Notes under the pieces: model-generated
The model's input: only the letters and a program-made list of their open reading frames with translations
Databases searched by the model: none
Told to the model about the DNA's origin: nothing
Made by a program: the position numbers and the translations under genes
Part shown: positions 2,504 to 9,161 of the stretch, piece by piece
Layout of the letters: every line of letters begins with the position of its first letter
How positions within the stretch are numbered: the first letter of the stretch is position 1
Virus record (IMG/VR): IMGVR_UViG_2703718804_000005
Direction: 5' to 3' (one strand)
DNA: 9,161 bases
From: a virus
Taxonomy: Duplodnaviria; Heunggongvirae; Uroviricota; Caudoviricetes

Positions 2504-5500
2504 ATGGGTAAAGGCAGCAGTAAGGGGCATACCCCGCGCGAAGCGAAGGACAACCTGAAGTCCACGCAGCTGCTGAGTGTGATCGATGCCATCAGCGAAG
2601 GGCCGGTTGAAGGTCCGGTGGATGGATTAAAAAGCGTGCTGCTGAACAGTACACCTGTGCTGGACAGTGAGGGGAATACCAATATCTCCGGCGTCACGGT
2701 GGTGTTCCGGGCCGGTGAGCAGGAGCAGACACCGCCGGAGGGGTTTGAATCCTCCGGCTCCGAGACGGTGCTCGGTACGGAAGTGAAATACGACACGCCG
2801 ATCACCCGGACCATCACGTCGGCAAACATCGACCGTCTGCGCTTTACCTTCGGTGTGCAGGCACTGGTGGAAACCACCTCAAAGGGTGACCGGAATCCGT
2901 CGGAAGTCCGCCTGCTGGTTCAGATACAACGTAACGGTGGCTGGGTGACAGAAAAAGACATCACCATTAAGGGCAAAACCACGTCGCAGTATCTGGCCTC
3001 GGTGGTGGTGGATAACCTGCCGCCGCGACCGTTCAATATCCGGATGCGCAGGATGACACCGGACAGCACCACAGACCAGTTGCAGAACAAAACGCTCTGG
3101 TCGTCATACACCGAAATCATCGATGTGAAACAGTGCTACCCGAACACGGCACTGGTCGGCGTGCAGGTGGATTCGGAGCAGTTCGGCAGCCAGCAGGTGA
3201 GCCGTAATTATCATCTTCGCGGGCGCATTCTGCAGGTGCCGTCGAACTATAACCCGCAGACGCGGCAATACAGCGGTATCTGGGACGGGACGTTTAAACC
3301 GGCATACAGCAACAACATGGCCTGGTGTCTGTGGGATATGCTGACCCATCCGCGCTACGGCATGGGGAAGCGTCTCGGTGCGGCGGATGTGGACAAATGG
3401 GCGCTGTATGTCATCGGCCAGAATTGCGACCAGTCGGTGCCGGATGGCTTTGGTGGCACGGAGCCGCGCATCACCTGTAACGCTTACCTGACCACACAGC
3501 GCAAGGCGTGGGATGTGCTCAGTGATTTCTGCTCGGCGATGCGCTGTATGCCGGTATGGAACGGGCAGACGCTGACGTTCGTGCAGGACCGACAGTCGGA
3601 TAAGGTGTGGACCTATAACCGCAGTAATGTGGTGATGCCGGATGATGGCGCGCCGTTCCGCTACAGCTTCAGCGCCCTGAAGGACCGCCATAATGCCGTT
3701 GAGGTGAACTGGATTGACCCGAACAACGGCTGGGAGACGGCGACAGAGCTTGTTGAAGATACGCAGGCCATTGCCCGTTACGGTCGTAATGTCACGAAGA
3801 TGGATGCCTTTGGCTGTACCAGCCGGGGGCAGGCACACCGCGCCGGGCTGTGGCTGATTAAAACGGAACTGCTGGAGACGCAGACCGTGGATTTCAGCGT
3901 GGGTGCTGAAGGGCTTCGCCATGTACCGGGCGATGTCATTGAAATCTGCGATGATGACTATGCCGGTATCAGCACCGGTGGTCGCGTGCTGGCGGTGAAC
4001 AGCCAGACCCGGACGCTGACGCTCGACCGTGAAATCACGCTGCCATCCTCCGGTACCACGCTGATAAGCCTGGTTGACGGAAGTGGTAATCCGGTCAGCG
4101 TGGAGGTTCAGTCCGTCACCGACGGACTTAAGGTGAAAGTGAACCGGGTTCCTGACGGCGTTGCAGAATACAGTGTGTGGGGGCTGAAGTTGCCGACGTT
4201 GCGTCAGCGCCTGTTCCGCTGTGTGAGTATCCGTGAGAACGATGACGGCACGTATGCCATCACTGCCGTGCAGCATGTACCGGAAAAAGAGGCCATCGTG
4301 GATAACGGGGCGCACTTTGACGGCGACCAGAGCGGCACGGTGAATGGTGTCACGCCGCCAGCGGTGCAGCACCTGACCGCCGAAGTCACCGCAGACAGCG
4401 GGGAATATCAGGTGCTGGCGCGCTGGGACACGCCGAAGGTGGTGAAGGGCGTGAGTTTCCTGCTCCGTCTGACCGTAACAGCGGATGACGGCAGTGAGCG
4501 GCTGGTCAGCACGGCCCGGACGACGGAAACCACATACCGCTTCAGGCAACTGACGCTGGGGCGTTACAGGCTGACAGTCCGGGCGGTAAATGCGTGGGGA
4601 CAGCAGGGCGATCCGGCATCGGTATCGTTCCGGATTGCCGCACCGGCAGCGCCGTCGCGGATTGAGCTGACACCGGGGTATTTTCAGATAACTGCCACGC
4701 CGCATCTTGCGGTTTATGACCCGACGGTGCAGTTTGAGTTCTGGTTCTCGGAAAAACGGATTGCGGATATCAGGCAGGTTGAAACCACAGCCCGCTATCT
4801 TGGCACGGCGCTGTACTGGATAGCTGCCAGTATCAATATCAGGCCGGGCCATGATTATTATTTTTACGTTCGCAGTGTGAACACCGTTGGCAAATCGGCA
4901 TTCGTGGAGGCTGTTGGTCAGCCGAGTGATGATGCATCCGGCTATCTGGATTTTTTCAAAGGCGAGATAGGAAAAACCCATCTGGCTCAGGAGCTGTGGA
5001 CGCAGATTGATAACGGTCAGCTGGCGCCTGATCTGGCTGAAATCAGGACGTCCATTACGGATGTCAGCAATGAAATCACACAGACCGTCAATAAGAAACT
5101 GGAAGACCAGAGTGCGGCAATTCAGCAGATACAGAAGGTTCAGGTTGATACAAATAATAACCTGAACAGCATGTGGGCTGTGAAGCTGCAGCAGATGCAG
5201 GACGGACGCCTTTATATCGCGGGTATTGGTGCCGGTATTGAGAACACCCCTGACGGCATGCAGAGTCAGGTGCTGCTGGCGGCGGACAGGATTGCGATGG
5301 TTAATCCTGCGAATGGCAACACAAAACCGATGTTTGTTGGTCAGGGCGATCAGATATTCATGAACGACGTGTTCCTGAAGCGCCTGACGGCCCCCACCAT
5401 TACCAGCGGCGGCAATCCCCCGGCCTTTTCCCTGACACCGGACGGAAAGCTGACGGCGAAAAATGCGGATATCAGTGGCAGTGTGAATGCGAACGCCGGG

Positions 5501-5983
5501 ACGCTCAATAATGTCACGATTAATGAGAACTGTCAGATTCTGGGAAAACTGTCAGCTAATCAGATTGAAGGCGATATTGTTAAAACGGTGGGTAAGGCTT
5601 TCCCCCGTGACTCCCGGGCACCGGAGCGGTGGCCGTCAGGGACCATTACCGTCAGGGTTTATGACGATCAGCCTTTTGACCGGCAAATTGTCATTCCGGC
5701 GGTGGCATTCAGCGGTGCCAGACATGAGAGAGAGCATAATGACATTTATTCATCATGCCGTCTGATAGTGCGGAAAAACGGTGCTGAAATTTATAACCGT
5801 ACCGCGCTGGATAATACGCTGATTTATACAGGTGTGATTGATATGCCAGCGGGTCGCGGTCACATGACGCTGGAGTTTTCGGTATCAGCGTGGCTGGTGA
5901 ATGACTGGTATCCCACGGCAAGCATCAGCGATTTGCTGGTTGTGGTGATGAAGAAATCCACAGCCGGTATCAGTATCAGCTGA
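2504..5983 (+). CDS. J: Central tail fibre / host specificity protein J (tip attachment protein)
   Basis: 1159-aa ORF starting [42 protein letters not shown], lambda gpJ-like in length and sequence character. It carries FN3-like segments around residues 620-800 and a helical Q/N-rich segment ([53 protein letters not shown]). SD-like GGAG/GAGGA lies upstream of ATG 2504; position follows I. Confidence 0.95.
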
Positions 5984-6002
5984 ATGTTCAGAAACCAGAC
6001 CG

Positions 6003-6030
6003 GGTGCCAGAAATGGCACCTTTTTTATTT
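6003..6030 (+). terminator. Rho-independent terminator between J and stf
   Basis: GGTGCCA (6003-6009), loop GAAA (a GNRA tetraloop), TGGCACC (6014-6020): a perfect 7-bp GC-rich stem followed immediately by TTTTTTATTT (6021-6030). It lies 20 nt after the J stop codon. Confidence 0.8.
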
Positions 6031-6041
6031 GTGGAACGAAT

Positions 6042-8627
6042 ATGGCAGTAAAGATTTCAGGCGTGCTGAAAGACGGTGCAGGTAAACCGGTACAGAACTG
6101 CACCATTCAGCTGAAAGCAAAACGTAACAGTACCACGGTGGTGGTGAACACGGTGGCCTCAGAAAATCCGGATGAAGCCGGGCGTTACAGTATGGACGTT
6201 GAGTACGGCCAGTACGGTGTCATCCTGCTGGTTGACGGTTTTCCGCCTTCACATGCCGGCACCATCACCGTGTATGAAGATTCTGAGCCGGGGACGCTGA
6301 ATGATTTTCTCGGTGCCATGACGGAGGATGATGCCCGTCCGGAGGCACTGCGCCGTTTTGAGCTGATGGTGGAAGAGGTGGCGCGTAACGCGTCCGCAGT
6401 GGCACAGAACACGGCAGCCGCGAAGAAGTCAGCCGGCGATGCCGGAACATCTGCCCGTGAGGCGGCAACCCATGCGACTGATGCTGCGGACTCAGCACGC
6501 GCCGCCAGCACGTCCGCCGGACAGGCTGCGACGTCAGCACAGGAAGCATCTTCCGGCGCAGAAACAGCCTCAGCAAAGGCCGCTGAGGCATCAAAAAGTG
6601 CTGCCGCTGCAGAGTCCTCAAAAAGCGCGGCGGCCACCAGTGCCGGTGCCGCGAAAACGTCAGAAACGAATGCGGCAGCGTCACAACAATCAGCCGCCAC
6701 GTCTGCATCCACCGCGACCTCGAAAGCGTCAGAAGCTGCCACGTCAGCCAGGGATGCGGCGGCCTCAAAAGAGGCGGCAAAATCATCAGAAACGAGCGCA
6801 GCCTCGAGCGCCGGTAGCGCAGCTTCCTCGGCAACGGCGGCAGGAAATTCCGCGAAGGCGGCAAAGACGTCTGAGACGAACGCCAGGTCTTCTGAAACGG
6901 CAGCGGAACAGAGTGCCTCCGCAGCAGCAGGCTCAGAAACTGCCGCTGCATCATCGTCCCGTGAGGCGTCAGTTAAAGCGGAGGAGGCCTCAGCCAGTGC
7001 CACCGCCGCCGGAAAATCGGCAGAAAGTGCCGCATTGTCCGCTTCAGCAGCCACAACGAAGGCTGGCGAAGCCACTGAACAGGCCACTGCAGCAGTGAGG
7101 TCTGCTTCCGCTGCGAGGACATCCGAGACGAACGCGAAAGCGTCGGAAACCCGTGCAGAATCTTCAGAAACGGCTGCCGTATCGTCCGCCAGTTCGGCGG
7201 CGTCATCAGCATCATCGGCGTCAGCTTCAAAAGATGAGGCGGCAAGGCTGGCGTCAGAGGCGCAGGGCAGTGCCACGACGGCATCCGCGAAGGCGACAGA
7301 GGCAGCTGGCAGTGCGACAGCGGCAGCACAGAGCAAAAGCACGGCAGAATCTGCGGCAACGCGCGCCGAGACTGCGGCAAAACGGGCGGAGGATATTGCA
7401 TCTGCCGTGGCGCTTGAGGATGCGAGCACGACGAAAAAGGGGATAGTCCAGCTCAGCAGTGCAACCAACAGTACATCTGAAACACTTGCCGCGACACCAA
7501 AGGCCGTAAAAGCCGCCTGTGAGAATGCTGAGAAACGACTGCAGAAAGATAAGAACGGTGCGGATGTCCCCGACAAAGACACCTTTACGAAAAATATTGG
7601 TGCCTGCCGTGCCTTCGGTGGGGCCGTAAGCACAACGACAGGAGACTGGACGACCGCACAGTTTATCGGGTGGCTGGATTCTCAGGGCGCATTTAACCAC
7701 CCATACTGGATGTGCAAGGGCTCCTGGTCTTACGGTAATAATAAAATCATCACGGATACGGGCTGCGGAAATATTCATCTCGCCGGCGCTGTCATTGAGG
7801 TGATGGGGATAAAGTCAGCGATGACGATCCGCATAACCACACCGACAACATCCAGCGGAAGTGGAACGGCGAATGCGCAGTTTACCTATATTAATCATGG
7901 TGATGGTTATTCCCCTGGCTGGCGTCGTGACTACAACACGAAAAACAAGCCACCGGCCTTTGCGCTGGGAAAAACCGGGGAAACGCTCGCCGATACAGAT
8001 GCCGTCGCCTGGAACCTGGACAGTGGCGCTTATTGTGCACAGGATGGTGGCGCATCATCCTTAATTCTTCATTTTAATACAGGGGAAGGCAGCTGCCCCG
8101 CGGTCCAGTTTCGGGTGAATTACCGGAATGGCGGGATATTTTACCGCTCCGCCCGTGATGGCTATGGCTTTGAGGCGGACTGGGAGCGTCTGTTCACGAC
8201 AACGGGCGGGACCCTGGAAGGTGCTGTGGGTATCGGTGCACAGAATACGCTGGGCGGCCATTCACTTGCGCTGGGGAGGGGCGACACAGGCCTGAAACAA
8301 AACGGCGACGGTAATCTTGATGTTTACGCCGGTAACGCACGTGTAATGCGCTTTACAAACGGCAGCATTCAGGTCAGTAAAGGGCTGAATGTGTCCGGGC
8401 GCGTTAATCCTTCCGATTACAGTAATTTTGATATCCGCTATGTCAGGGATATCCGGCTGGGCACGCGTGTTGTTCAGGGCATGCAAAAAGGCGTGACGTA
8501 TGAGAAATCCGGCCATGTCATTACGGGGCTTTGTCTTGTCGGGGATGCTGATGGCGATAACTCAGCGGTTTACCGGCCGGTGCAAAAATACATAAACGGC
8601 ACATGGTTTAACGTATCGCAGGTATAA
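6042..8627 (+). CDS. stf: Side tail fibre protein (Stf-like): conserved N-terminal tail-attachment region, Ala/Ser/Thr-rich shaft, divergent C-terminal distal domain
   Basis: 861-aa ORF. The N-terminus MAVKISGVLKDGAGKPVQNCTIQLKAKRNSTTVVVNTV...DGFPPSHAGTITVYED is lambda Stf-like from memory. The widely shared fibre junction motif GIVQLSSATNSTSETLAATPKAVK is encoded at 7440-7511. The gene sits downstream of J and is followed by tfa. Confidence 0.9.
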   Translation: MAVKISGVLKDGAGKPVQNCTIQLKAKRNSTTVVVNTVASENPDEAGRYSMDVEYGQYGVILLVDGFPPSHAGTITVYEDSEPGTLNDFLGAMTEDDARPEALRRFELMVEEVARNASAVAQNTAAAKKSAGDAGTSAREAATHATDAADSARAASTSAGQAATSAQEASSGAETASAKAAEASKSAAAAESSKSAAATSAGAAKTSETNAAASQQSAATSASTATSKASEAATSARDAAASKEAAKSSETSAASSAGSAASSATAAGNSAKAAKTSETNARSSETAAEQSASAAAGSETAAASSSREASVKAEEASASATAAGKSAESAALSASAATTKAGEATEQATAAVRSASAARTSETNAKASETRAESSETAAVSSASSAASSASSASASKDEAARLASEAQGSATTASAKATEAAGSATAAAQSKSTAESAATRAETAAKRAEDIASAVALEDASTTKKGIVQLSSATNSTSETLAATPKAVKAACENAEKRLQKDKNGADVPDKDTFTKNIGACRAFGGAVSTTTGDWTTAQFIGWLDSQGAFNHPYWMCKGSWSYGNNKIITDTGCGNIHLAGAVIEVMGIKSAMTIRITTPTTSSGSGTANAQFTYINHGDGYSPGWRRDYNTKNKPPAFALGKTGETLADTDAVAWNLDSGAYCAQDGGASSLILHFNTGEGSCPAVQFRVNYRNGGIFYRSARDGYGFEADWERLFTTTGGTLEGAVGIGAQNTLGGHSLALGRGDTGLKQNGDGNLDVYAGNARVMRFTNGSIQVSKGLNVSGRVNPSDYSNFDIRYVRDIRLGTRVVQGMQKGVTYEKSGHVITGLCLVGDADGDNSAVYRPVQKYINGTWFNVSQV
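6390..7440 (+). repeat. Low-complexity Ala/Ser/Thr-rich degenerate repeat region encoding the stf shaft
   Basis: About 350 codons dominated by GCN/TCN/ACN/GAR codons. The unit (A)-K/R-T-S-E-T-N-A recurs at 6651-6680, 6861-6887 and 7113-7136, spaced 210 and 252 nt apart (70 and 84 codons, both multiples of 7). The region is free of stops in all three forward frames and on the antisense strand. Confidence 0.6.
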
Positions 8628-8630
8628 GTA

Positions 8631-9161
8631 ATGCAGCACTTAAAAAATATTACAGCAGGTAATCCCAAAACCGTTGCTCAGTATCAACTGACAAAAAATT
8701 TTGATGTTATCTGGTTGTTTTCAGAGGACGGAAGAAACTGGTATGAAGAAGTGAGTAACTTTCAGAAAGACACAATAAAGATGGCTTACGATGAAAACAA
8801 TATTATCGTTGCCATCACCCGGGATGCCTCAACGCTTAATCCGGCGGGATTAAGTGTTGTTGAGGTGGCAGATATAACGGCGAACCGCCGTGCAGACGAT
8901 TCGGGGCAGTGGATGTATCTGGACGGTCAGGTGAGGAAACGCGAGTATTCGTCAGAGGAAGTCAACAGACAGACAGAGCAACGCAAGGCCACGCTGCTCA
9001 GTGAAGCAGATACCATCATCCGGCTTCTGGAGCGGTCGGTAAGGCTGAGTATGGCCACGGAAGAAGAGCGAACCCGGCTGTCGGCATGGGAGCGTTACAG
9101 CGTCCTGCTCAGCCGGGTGGATTCAGCGAACCCGGAATGGCCACAAAAGCCAGAGCAGTAA
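8631..9161 (+). CDS. tfa: Tail fibre assembly protein (Tfa-like chaperone)
   Basis: 176-aa ORF immediately after stf (3-nt gap), with AGGT 8 nt upstream of the ATG. The C-terminus [33 protein letters not shown] matches the conserved Tfa C-terminal motif as I remember it from lambda Tfa (of the form LEAWKKYRVLLNRVD...EWP). The stop codon TAA is the last three bases of the window. Confidence 0.85.

Follow-up and report, generated by a model that had tools for sequence, protein, structure and literature searches.

A side tail fibre gene joining a lambda-type attachment domain and shaft to a receptor-binding module of the P2/Mu type

Background

The tail fibre genes of temperate phages can combine parts of different ancestry, and the gene described here raises the question of where its distal end came from, how it was joined to the rest and what it might recognise. 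The stretch of DNA analysed (the window; 9,161 nucleotides) belongs to a tailed virus of the class Caudoviricetes (IMG/VR record IMGVR_UViG_2703718804_000005), a lambda-like prophage of E. coli. An initial annotation, made from the letters alone, proposed that its stf gene is of the lambda type up to a junction motif and that the remainder is a horizontally swapped host-range cassette.

Organisation of the locus

The window contains three genes of interest:

2504 to 5983: J, with all J domains present
6042 to 8627: stf, a single open reading frame of 861 amino acids
8631 to 9161, + strand: tfa, encoding a complete tail fibre assembly protein (176 amino acids) of the P2 G/Mu U type

The gene order is that of an Stf-type fibre: stf lies directly 3' of J and is followed by tfa, which begins 3 bases past its end. 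In lambda, lom is located between J and stf, whereas the window has no lom. No tandem DNA repeats were found in stf-tfa at a score of at least 40.

The proximal part of stf includes the following features:

6042 to 6443, + strand: N-terminal attachment domain of the lambda type (residues 1-134)
6402 to 7439, + strand: shaft rich in Ala, Ser and Thr (residues 121-466; 38% Ala, 21% Ser)
7440 to 7511, + strand: junction motif GIVQLSSATNSTSETLAATPKAVK, a phage tail fibre repeat (residues 467-490)

The attachment domain matches Pfam PF08400 (phage_tail_N) with an E-value of 5.9e-73, is 87-93% identical to that of lambda Stf, and has a match over residues 1-94 to a chain of known structure from the lambda tail fibre (9E7M; E 5.5e-52). 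The shaft can be aligned with lambda Stf apart from an extra stretch of approximately 105 residues (about 301-405) and is 83-100% identical to the Stf of PhiR42_1. The description of the protein as lambda-type as far as the motif is borne out by a full-length BLASTP comparison with lambda Stf, in which the alignment is not uniform over the 861 amino acids but covers residues 1-488 only.

The initial annotation also cited AT-richer DNA from about position 7450 in favour of an exchange. The drop itself is real: the GC content is 0.627 in the shaft and 0.51-0.575 thereafter. However, it results from the Ala and Ser codons of the shaft, whose second-position GC (GC2) is 0.766. GC at the third codon position (GC3) is flat across the motif (shaft, 0.535; distal body, 0.570; chi-square p 0.44). 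The raw drop is therefore an amino-acid effect and not evidence of foreign origin, and GC content was rejected as such evidence.

The junction motif and the similarity breakpoints

Pfam PF03406 (Phage_fiber_2) covers residues 462-502 with an E-value of 1.2e-20 and 73.2 bits, against a gathering cut-off of 22. The motif is present in 422 phage records. There is one copy here, as in lambda and Mu S, but two in PhiR42_1 (44 residues apart) and three in P2 H. Of the fibres originally listed as sharing it, lambda Stf, Mu S and P2 H do so, as does P1 S, but T4 gp37 is not among the sampled tblastn matches.

Comparison of the DNA with lambda gives 57/72 identical positions upstream of the motif, 62/72 within it and only 22/72 downstream (Fisher p 6e-9). 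The comparison with the third motif copy of P2 H is the mirror image: 25/72 upstream, 53/72 within and 57/72 downstream (p 1e-7; the P2 H copies match the motif at 53-60 of the 72 positions), and P2 H can be aligned from the motif through to the end of the protein. The step expected at the motif is thus sharp and reciprocal.

The end points of similarity were counted in a spread sample of 60 of the 5109 E. coli matches. Clusters are seen around the end of the motif (base 1470), with 19 rows at stf bases 1460-1487, and further on at bases 1532-1539 (13 rows) and base 1916 (8 rows). The nested mosaic has its breakpoints near stf bases 1470, 1535 and 1916.

The distal body

Downstream of the motif, three segments precede the insert and tip described below:

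7512 to 7604, + strand: linker AACENAEKRLQKDKNGADVPDKDTFTKNIGA (residues 491-521)
7605 to 7958, + strand: first half of the distal body, S'/H type (residues 522-639)
7959 to 8237, + strand: second half of the distal body, S'/H type (residues 640-732)

The distal 371 residues had been described as unlike the lambda Stf distal part. This is so: the best BLASTP match between them and the 389 distal residues of lambda Stf has an E-value of 0.08, and no similarity is detectable. A separate search with the distal part finds relatives elsewhere. With tblastn, P2 H is 59% identical over the full 371 residues, and P1 Sv' and Mu S' are about 71% identical; for residues 491-732, identity to Mu S', P1 S' and P2 H is 71-76%. 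The solved structure 8JU3 (Mu S/S') matches residues 495-732 with an E-value of 9.5e-133. Judged by these similarities, the distal part is not an orphan but belongs to the well-known Mu S'/P1 S'/P2 H type. The same distal module follows several different N-terminal domains (PF08400, PF12571, PF26078/PF26079 and PF21446). An AlphaFold2 monomer model of residues 491-861, made with an alignment of 13 sequences only, had a mean pLDDT of 32 and a pTM of 0.23.

Identity varies from segment to segment. The motif and linker together (residues 467-521) reach 84% identity with P2 H and 64% with Mu S. For many relatives (Rac stfR, phage 2H10 and phage Turner among them), similarity ends within the linker, at stf bases 1532-1539. 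The first half of the body is 90% identical to PhiR42_1 Stf, with lower values for P2 H and P1 Sv' (80-81%) and for Mu S' (76%); approximately 690 complete E. coli genomes match this part only, at approximately 88% DNA identity. The similarity to PhiR42-type lambdoid stf genes stops at stf base 1916, that is, at residue 639. The second half of the body is 63-69% identical to P2 H, Mu S' and P1 Sv' and contains a match to Pfam PF12604 (gp37_C; E 3.6e-6).

Stf has eight cysteines (residues 20, 493, 522, 558, 575, 665, 685 and 831), seven of which are distal, in the sequence contexts first reported for them. Cys522, Cys558, Cys575 and Cys685 are invariant across the aligned S'/H-type homologues, with the exception of the deletion variant P0003, which has Ala at 522. 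All four are missing from Mu S.

The tip, its chaperone and the probable receptor class

The remainder of stf comprises:

8238 to 8426, + strand: Gly-rich insert (residues 733-795)
8427 to 8624, + strand: C-terminal tip, the probable receptor-contact and Tfa-docking region (residues 796-861)

The insert is missing in Mu S', P1 Sv' and vB_EcoM-12474 H and is found in P0005, P0006 and P0008. It shows weak matches to S16 gp37 (6F45; E 3e-4) and, below the cut-off, to Pfam gp37_trimer (E 0.009). Together, insert and tip (residues 733-861) are 74% identical to gpH of the P2-like phages pro147, P2_AC1 and L-413C. For the tip itself, the best match is vB_EcoM-12474III H (79% identity), with P2 H at 56%, Mu S at 53% and Mu S' at 32%. 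It aligns with residues 396-502 of 5YVQ_A and retains the C-terminal motif INGTW(F/Y)N.

Tfa matches Pfam PF02413 (Caudo_TAP; E 1.9e-29) and, over residues 1-175, the full length of Mu U (5YVQ_B; E 1e-84). It shares 78% identity with vB_EcoM-12474III G; for Mu U the figure is 74%, for P2 G 67% and for Mu U' 50%. vB_EcoM-12474III is the best match of both the tip and Tfa, and the cognate tfa travels with the tip. Lambda Tfa can be aligned only with the C-terminal domain (residues 113-174; 42% identity). This fits the published design of these chaperones (PMC9608196): the N-terminal domain is variable and attaches to the fibre, and trimerisation is driven by the C-terminal domain, which is conserved.

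The receptor was initially considered to be unknown, but its class can be deduced from homologues with mapped receptors. Those of P2 vir1 and L-413C have been mapped to LPS core sugars (PMC3182234), and the Mu fibres are described as binders of the LPS outer or inner core (PMC11821841). By analogy, the LPS core is the likely receptor class of this fibre; a receptor other than LPS is possible. In the P2-like phage P88, host range is altered by small changes in a stretch called HR2 (PMC5285337), which maps onto residues 813-843 of Stf (nucleotides 8478-8570). The prediction extends to a receptor class and not to one sugar epitope: identity of the tip to fibres that have been characterised is no more than 53-79%, and small changes of this kind shift host range. 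Two of the cysteines, Cys493 in the linker and Cys831, are lineage-specific, and Cys831 lies inside the region aligned with the mapped host-range determinant. It is conceivable, if rather unlikely, that a disulfide between them reshapes the tip, so that the fibre sees an LPS-core or other epitope distinct from those of P2, Mu and L-413C.

A chimeric gene and its probable origin

By sequence comparison stf is shown to be a chimera, with residues 1-466 of the lambda type, the repeat (residues 467-490) as the joint, and a remainder that belongs to the fibre pool of contractile-tailed temperate phages. A horizontally exchanged, putative receptor-binding module behind a lambda-type attachment domain and shaft is supported. 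The proposal of a swapped cassette therefore stands as regards the exchange at the motif, given the reciprocal breakpoints and the pile-up of end points, but not as regards a single cassette: the distal part is a nested mosaic of linker, two body halves, insert and tip, with the cognate tfa accompanying the tip. We consider it very probable that the gene arose by module exchange at the motif together with switch-free mosaicism involving the fibre pool of P2/Mu-type phages, and that it ends in a tip whose likely receptor class is the LPS core.

Fibre genes that are otherwise unrelated have the repeat and the adjacent linker in common at the DNA level. These conserved stretches would therefore offer short patches of homology for recombination, and a series of exchanges there and at the boundaries between domains could have built the nested mosaic. 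In the resulting particle, the attachment domain and shaft would fix the fibre to the tail, adjoining J. The variable N-terminal domain of Tfa would fit the matching tip and, docked there, Tfa would assist trimerisation, as in the homologous systems. The tip, around residues 813-843, would bind LPS core sugars reversibly, as do the fibres of P2, L-413C and, reportedly, Mu. A siphovirus would thereby gain an accessory adsorption specificity unlike that of Ur-lambda Stf, which reportedly uses OmpC or unmodified O16 O-antigen (PMC11990801).

Alternative explanations

The distal part might instead have been acquired through, or be a fixed remnant of, a Din-family invertible segment resembling Mu G or P1 C, with an invertase acting at a crossover site in the linker in place of homologous recombination at the repeat. 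In this class of host-range segments, which includes e14 P, inverted gix, cix or pix sites flank the variable fibre end. We regard this as unlikely, although several observations are compatible with it. Such segments have Mu S' and P1 Sv', the nearest homologues of the body, as their variable ends; the breakpoint class within the linker, at residues 511-513, precedes the position aligned with Mu gix by a few codons; PhiR42_1 carries a PinQ/PinR-type recombinase right after tfa; and a statement in PMC3945230, citing Sandmeier 1994, credits ancient fibre exchange partly to invertases. Against this, similarity to lambda and to P2 H breaks precisely at the repeat and not at the gix-equivalent position. 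A pattern for the crossover site, which recovered both gix sites in Mu and both cix sites in P1 as positive controls, found no match to the gix/cix consensus in the window or in PhiR42_1 with up to 3 mismatches, and the best gix match within 7400-7700 is 14/26. The aligned position, which reads FIQNLGLQE in Mu and FTKNIGACR here, is no longer a crossover site. Finally, in a genome that is 99.98% identical, tfa is followed directly by a ydfJ remnant, with neither an invertase nor a second, inverted Sv'/U' set beside it. An active inversion switch was rejected on these grounds (no consensus site, no invertase): stf, which has no invertase, crossover site or second inverted fibre end, is not a phase-variable switch.

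It is far less probable that stf is a decayed pseudogene or an assembly chimera whose distal part is functionless at present. The prophage occupies the ydfJ (Qin) site, which in E. coli K-12 contains a defective prophage, and in the two genomes checked RefSeq lists stf as 'incomplete; missing C-terminus', cutting the intact 861-codon gene to a pseudogene that ends at codon 521. The reading frame nevertheless runs without interruption for all 861 codons, and from the motif to the last residue the product aligns in frame with P2 H, Mu S' and others. The protein retains the four family-invariant cysteines as well as INGTW(F/Y)N at its C-terminus, the cognate tfa beyond the gene is complete, and the same stf-tfa pair occurs at 95-100% identity in 33 independent complete genomes, which argues against an assembly artefact and for intact maintenance. 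The RefSeq flag has a practical consequence, since protein-level surveys of receptor-binding proteins would miss the module in those records. Should the fibre indeed see a distinct epitope, this systematic flag would have hidden such receptor-binding proteins from protein-based surveys.

Vertical divergence from a lambda-like ancestor without any exchange can practically be dismissed: receptor-binding ends do evolve fast and GC3 is unchanged at the motif, but identity to lambda falls from 79-86% to a random level (31%) within 72 bases with P2 H as the mirror image, the signatures differ (eight HxH motifs and no cysteine in the lambda distal part, no HxH and seven cysteines here), and the distal part is 71-76% identical to myovirus fibres with unrelated N-termini.

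Comparison with known systems

The exchange at the motif, with mosaicism downstream, is real but of an ordinary and long-known kind of host-range module exchange, and its novelty is low. The principle of modular fibre exchange has been known since the early 1990s, and stf adds an instance, not a concept, to tail fibre mosaicism. It is a clean case of temperate coliphages reshaping their host range with exchangeable fibre parts, and its joints, at the repeat, in the linker and near residues 639, 732 and 795, are natural splice points that could inform the design of chimeric fibres.

The nearest phage relatives in DNA are the lambdoid Stf genes of the PhiR42_1, mEp460 and SPF_0923 type (1023 amino acids), with 89% identity over stf bases 1-1916. 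This likeness takes in the first half of the S'/H body; after residue 639, the PhiR42_1-type Stf has a lambda-type end and a lambda-type Tfa, unlike the present gene. For stf bases 1917-2586, megablast found no recent donor in complete E. coli genomes (beyond the 33 carriers) or phages; even the nearest non-identical DNA for residues 640-861 has diverged beyond the reach of this search. Among plasmids, two records match, and only at the end of stf and in tfa (76-77% identity).

As in Ur-lambda, stf follows J and encodes the same N-terminal domain, shaft and motif; the Tfa proteins have their C-terminal domain in common. The distal residues of Ur-lambda Stf differ, and their HxH motifs are a signature of the T4 gp37 fibre.

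The likeness to P2 gpH is continuous from the motif to the C-terminus, and Tfa is 67-78% identical to the gpG of P2-like phages. In these phages, however, the N-terminal domain is PF12571 (tail collar), in place of PF08400 here, and no single P2-like fibre is equally close to all of the sub-modules.

Among the closest counterparts is the phage Mu G(-) tail fibre S', the structure of which (PDB 8JU3) was reportedly described by Mori et al. in 2024 (Virology 593:110017; cited in PMC11821841). Residues 491-732 are 71-72% identical to this protein and to P1 C(-) Sv', with the four invariant cysteines in common, and in Mu S the repeat motif likewise lies upstream of the variable part. The present fibre departs from Mu S' in its dissimilar tip, its added insert of 63 residues and a chaperone closer to U than to U'. 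Unlike those of Mu S' and P1 Sv', its module lies outside any invertible segment, and it is joined to a lambda-type siphovirus Stf N-terminus instead of the myovirus baseplate-binding N-terminus of Mu and P1. An S'-type body combined with an insert and tip of the pro147/L-413C type and a Tfa of the Mu U type may be a new arrangement among characterised siphovirus side fibres.

Genomic context

The region represents the tail-tip end of a lambda-like prophage, with the following genes:

129-458, M
458-1156, L
1119-1904, K
1802-2443, I
2504-5983, J, with all lambda J domains present
6042-8627, stf, an intact ORF of 861 aa
8631-9161, tfa, complete (176 aa)

Only 58 bases (5984-6041) separate J from stf, whereas lambda (L001, 3316-3936) and PhiR42_1 (L002, 1837-2436) carry lom at this position. 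In Escherichia coli ARS-C301, which is 99.98% identical to the window, the end of the prophage comes directly after tfa, at a truncated ydfJ, and no invertase is found downstream. In L006, approximately 260 bases (10651-10914) lie between tfa and the ydfJ remnant (10915-12198). The same site is occupied by the defective Qin prophage in E. coli K-12; the prophage described here has the full tail gene set. Long ORFs in other frames or on the opposite strand overlap the stf shaft (6185-7633, minus; 6265-6954, minus; 6439-7098, plus; 6973-7401, minus; up to 482 aa). These are most likely not genes but a side effect of a shaft sequence rich in Ala/Ser codons and poor in stops.

The breakpoint

The junction motif, GIVQLSSATNSTSETLAATPKAVK, lies where the initial annotation had placed it (7440-7511, Stf residues 467-490). 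It corresponds to the Pfam phage tail fibre repeat PF03406 (E 1.2e-20) and occurs in 422 phage records (lambdoid, Stx, P2-like, P1-like and other phages). As had also been proposed, the distal part is unlike its lambda counterpart: BLASTP aligns Ur-lambda Stf to residues 1-488 only, and the distal parts share no significant similarity (best E 0.08). That of lambda includes eight HxH motifs and no cysteines, whereas that of the window includes seven cysteines and no HxH.

At the DNA level, matches to lambda are 57/72 upstream of the motif, 62/72 within it and 22/72 downstream (Fisher p 6e-9). Compared with P2 H at its third copy of the repeat, the same three stretches score 25/72, 53/72 and 57/72 (Fisher p 1e-7). 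The abrupt step in similarity at the motif is real and far beyond chance.

We surveyed breakpoints in 60 rows, a spread sample of the 5109 matches that stf-tfa has in E. coli. Similarity breaks off at stf bases 350, approximately 842, 1297, 1460-1487 (19 rows; the motif ends at base 1470), 1532-1539 (13 rows, Rac stfR among them) and 1916 (8 rows). In the same sample, an unrelated 'tail-collar fibre' gene matches only bases 1390-1460 (90%).

The repeat is present once in the window Stf, lambda and Mu S, twice in PhiR42_1 Stf (residues 467 and 511) and three times in P2 H (residues 219, 263 and 307), with a 44-residue period. Megablast matches to PhiR42_1 fall into two pieces whose 132-base gap is the stretch between its two copies. 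The single repeat of the window looks like the PhiR42_1 arrangement minus this stretch, as from unequal crossing-over between copies.

A nested mosaic

Judged by its sequence, the distal part belongs to a known family and is not an orphan. In tblastn comparisons it is 59% identical to P2 gpH over all 371 residues, approximately 71% to P1 Sv' and Mu S' over the first 240, and 76% to the P2-like phage vB_EcoM-12474. In the Protein Data Bank, Mu S/S' (8JU3) matches residues 495-732 (E 9.5e-133) and Mu S (5YVQ_A) matches the tip. A sliding identity profile and per-segment identities show it to be a nested mosaic:

Segments of the distal region of Stf (residues, segment, identity)
467-521, motif and linker: 84% P2 H, 89% PhiR42_1 Stf
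522-639, body 1: 90% PhiR42_1; 76-81% P2 H, Mu S' and P1 Sv'
640-732, body 2: 63-69% P2 H, Mu S' and P1 Sv'; PhiR42_1 similarity lost
733-795, Gly-rich insert: missing in Mu S', P1 Sv' and vB_EcoM-12474 H
796-861, tip: 79% vB_EcoM-12474III H; 53-56% Mu S and P2 H; 32% Mu S'

Insert and tip together share 74% identity with the fibre ends of pro147, P2_AC1 and L-413C, a phage of Yersinia pestis. Among public proteins, N-terminal domains of at least four types precede this distal module. The whole stf-tfa is found in only 33 of 5426 complete genomes, always at 95-100% identity, and megablast of stf bases 1917-2586 gave no match in this set outside those 33.

Two database variants were also encountered. 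The E. coli protein P0003 (631 aa) shares the N-terminus and distal module of the window Stf but is missing approximately 230 residues, the motif among them, and its shaft leads directly into STTTGDWTT; either a genuine deletion or faulty assembly may account for this. P0001 (500 aa, from a 2386-base Logan contig) has a terminase Nu1-like N-terminus (PF07471) before the distal module, probably a mis-assembly or a miscalled ORF.

The chaperone and the fibre tip travel together. Tfa matches Mu U (5YVQ_B) over its full length (E 1e-84), with identities of 78% to vB_EcoM-12474III G, 74% to Mu U, 67% to P2 G and 50% to Mu U', whereas lambda Tfa shares only residues 113-174. This pattern fits the described Tfa design, in which the N-terminal domain is variable and attaches to the end of the fibre, and the C-terminal domain is conserved and brings about trimerisation (PMC9608196).

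The step at the motif and the P2/Mu/P1-type distal matches thus support the proposed lambda-type Stf with a horizontally exchanged distal module. The idea of a single swapped cassette needs amending, however, to a nested mosaic of a known family, with tfa included.

Composition and cysteines

The DNA is indeed AT-richer after about 7450 (GC 0.627 in the shaft, 0.51-0.575 in the distal part), but this is not evidence of exchange. The Ala (38%) and Ser (21%) content of the shaft raises its GC2 to 0.766, and GC3 is level across the motif (0.535 in the shaft, 0.570 in the distal body; p 0.44), so composition is silent on exchange there. GC3 steps occur elsewhere: between J (0.672) and stf (0.53-0.57), and between the N- and C-domains of Tfa (0.473 and 0.682; p 0.011). 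The latter is a hint that the two halves of tfa, one fibre-specific and one conserved, differ in their histories. The lowest GC of the window (0.41-0.45, at 8400-8850) covers the end of stf and the first 110 tfa codons.

Seven of the eight cysteines (residues 20, 493, 522, 558, 575, 665, 685 and 831) are distal to the motif, as originally noted. Cys522, 558, 575 and 685 recur throughout the set of S'/H-type homologues compared (except at 522 in P0003), so cysteine richness is a family trait rather than an oddity. Cys665 is shared with P2 H; among these homologues, Cys493 and Cys831 are confined to the near-identical lineage of the window Stf.

Origin of the chimera

A Din-family crossover-site consensus that recovered gixL/R in Mu and cixL/R in P1 found no match in the window or PhiR42_1. 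The Stf position aligned with the Mu gix site reads FTKNIGACR, and the best gix-like 26-base stretch in 7400-7700 matches at 14/26. Neither an invertase nor an inverted second fibre end lies by stf-tfa; stf is therefore a fixed chimera and not an inversion switch. Its simplest origin would be homologous recombination at the conserved repeat and linker, an older invertase-mediated step being possible. Experiments have demonstrated relaxed homologous recombination of lambda with the stf-tfa of Rac or Qin (PMC3945230). That paper also revisits the classic case for ancient exchange of fibres between unrelated phages, citing Haggard-Ljungquist 1992 and Sandmeier 1992, 1994.

Receptor

Stf would form a trimer with Tfa docked on its tip, and the tip would bind LPS core sugars (the AlphaFold2 monomer model has a pLDDT of 32). 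Tfa is reported to remain on mature Mu and Ur-lambda particles (PMC9608196). The initial annotation considered the receptor unknown. Its class can be inferred as LPS core from P2 vir1, L-413C and the Mu fibres, although the sequence does not specify the exact epitope. For P2 vir1 and L-413C, the receptors have been mapped to terminal GlcNAc and heptoses in the LPS core of Y. pestis (PMC3182234), and gpH of L-413C binds directly to cells (PMC7460101). The outer and inner LPS core are the described targets of the two Mu fibres (PMC11821841). Host range of the P2-like phage P88 is set by its residues 716-746 (PMC5285337); these align with Stf 813-843, which includes Cys831. In contrast, the reported receptors of Ur-lambda Stf are OmpC or unmodified O16 O-antigen (PMC11990801).

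Annotation and comparison with known systems

Whole Stf (6042-8624) gives piecewise matches to 39 different PHROG families. Several of these are small 'unknown function' families that coincide with single sub-modules (for example phrog_21834, residues 489-620, and phrog_17305, residues 814-861). Annotating mosaic fibres in fragments seems to have given rise to spurious families.

One practical point concerns RefSeq (PGAP). In the two independent genomes checked (L006, 7531-9093; L010, 1531-3093), the equivalent of the intact 861-codon ORF at 6042-8627 is labelled 'incomplete; missing C-terminus' and called as a pseudogene whose annotation ends at codon 521, which leaves 340 distal codons unannotated. 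The corresponding region is represented in draft genomes by 'partial' proteins (P0002, 164 members; P0004, 132 members). Fibre-module exchange itself is of a long-known kind, to which stf-tfa adds one member.
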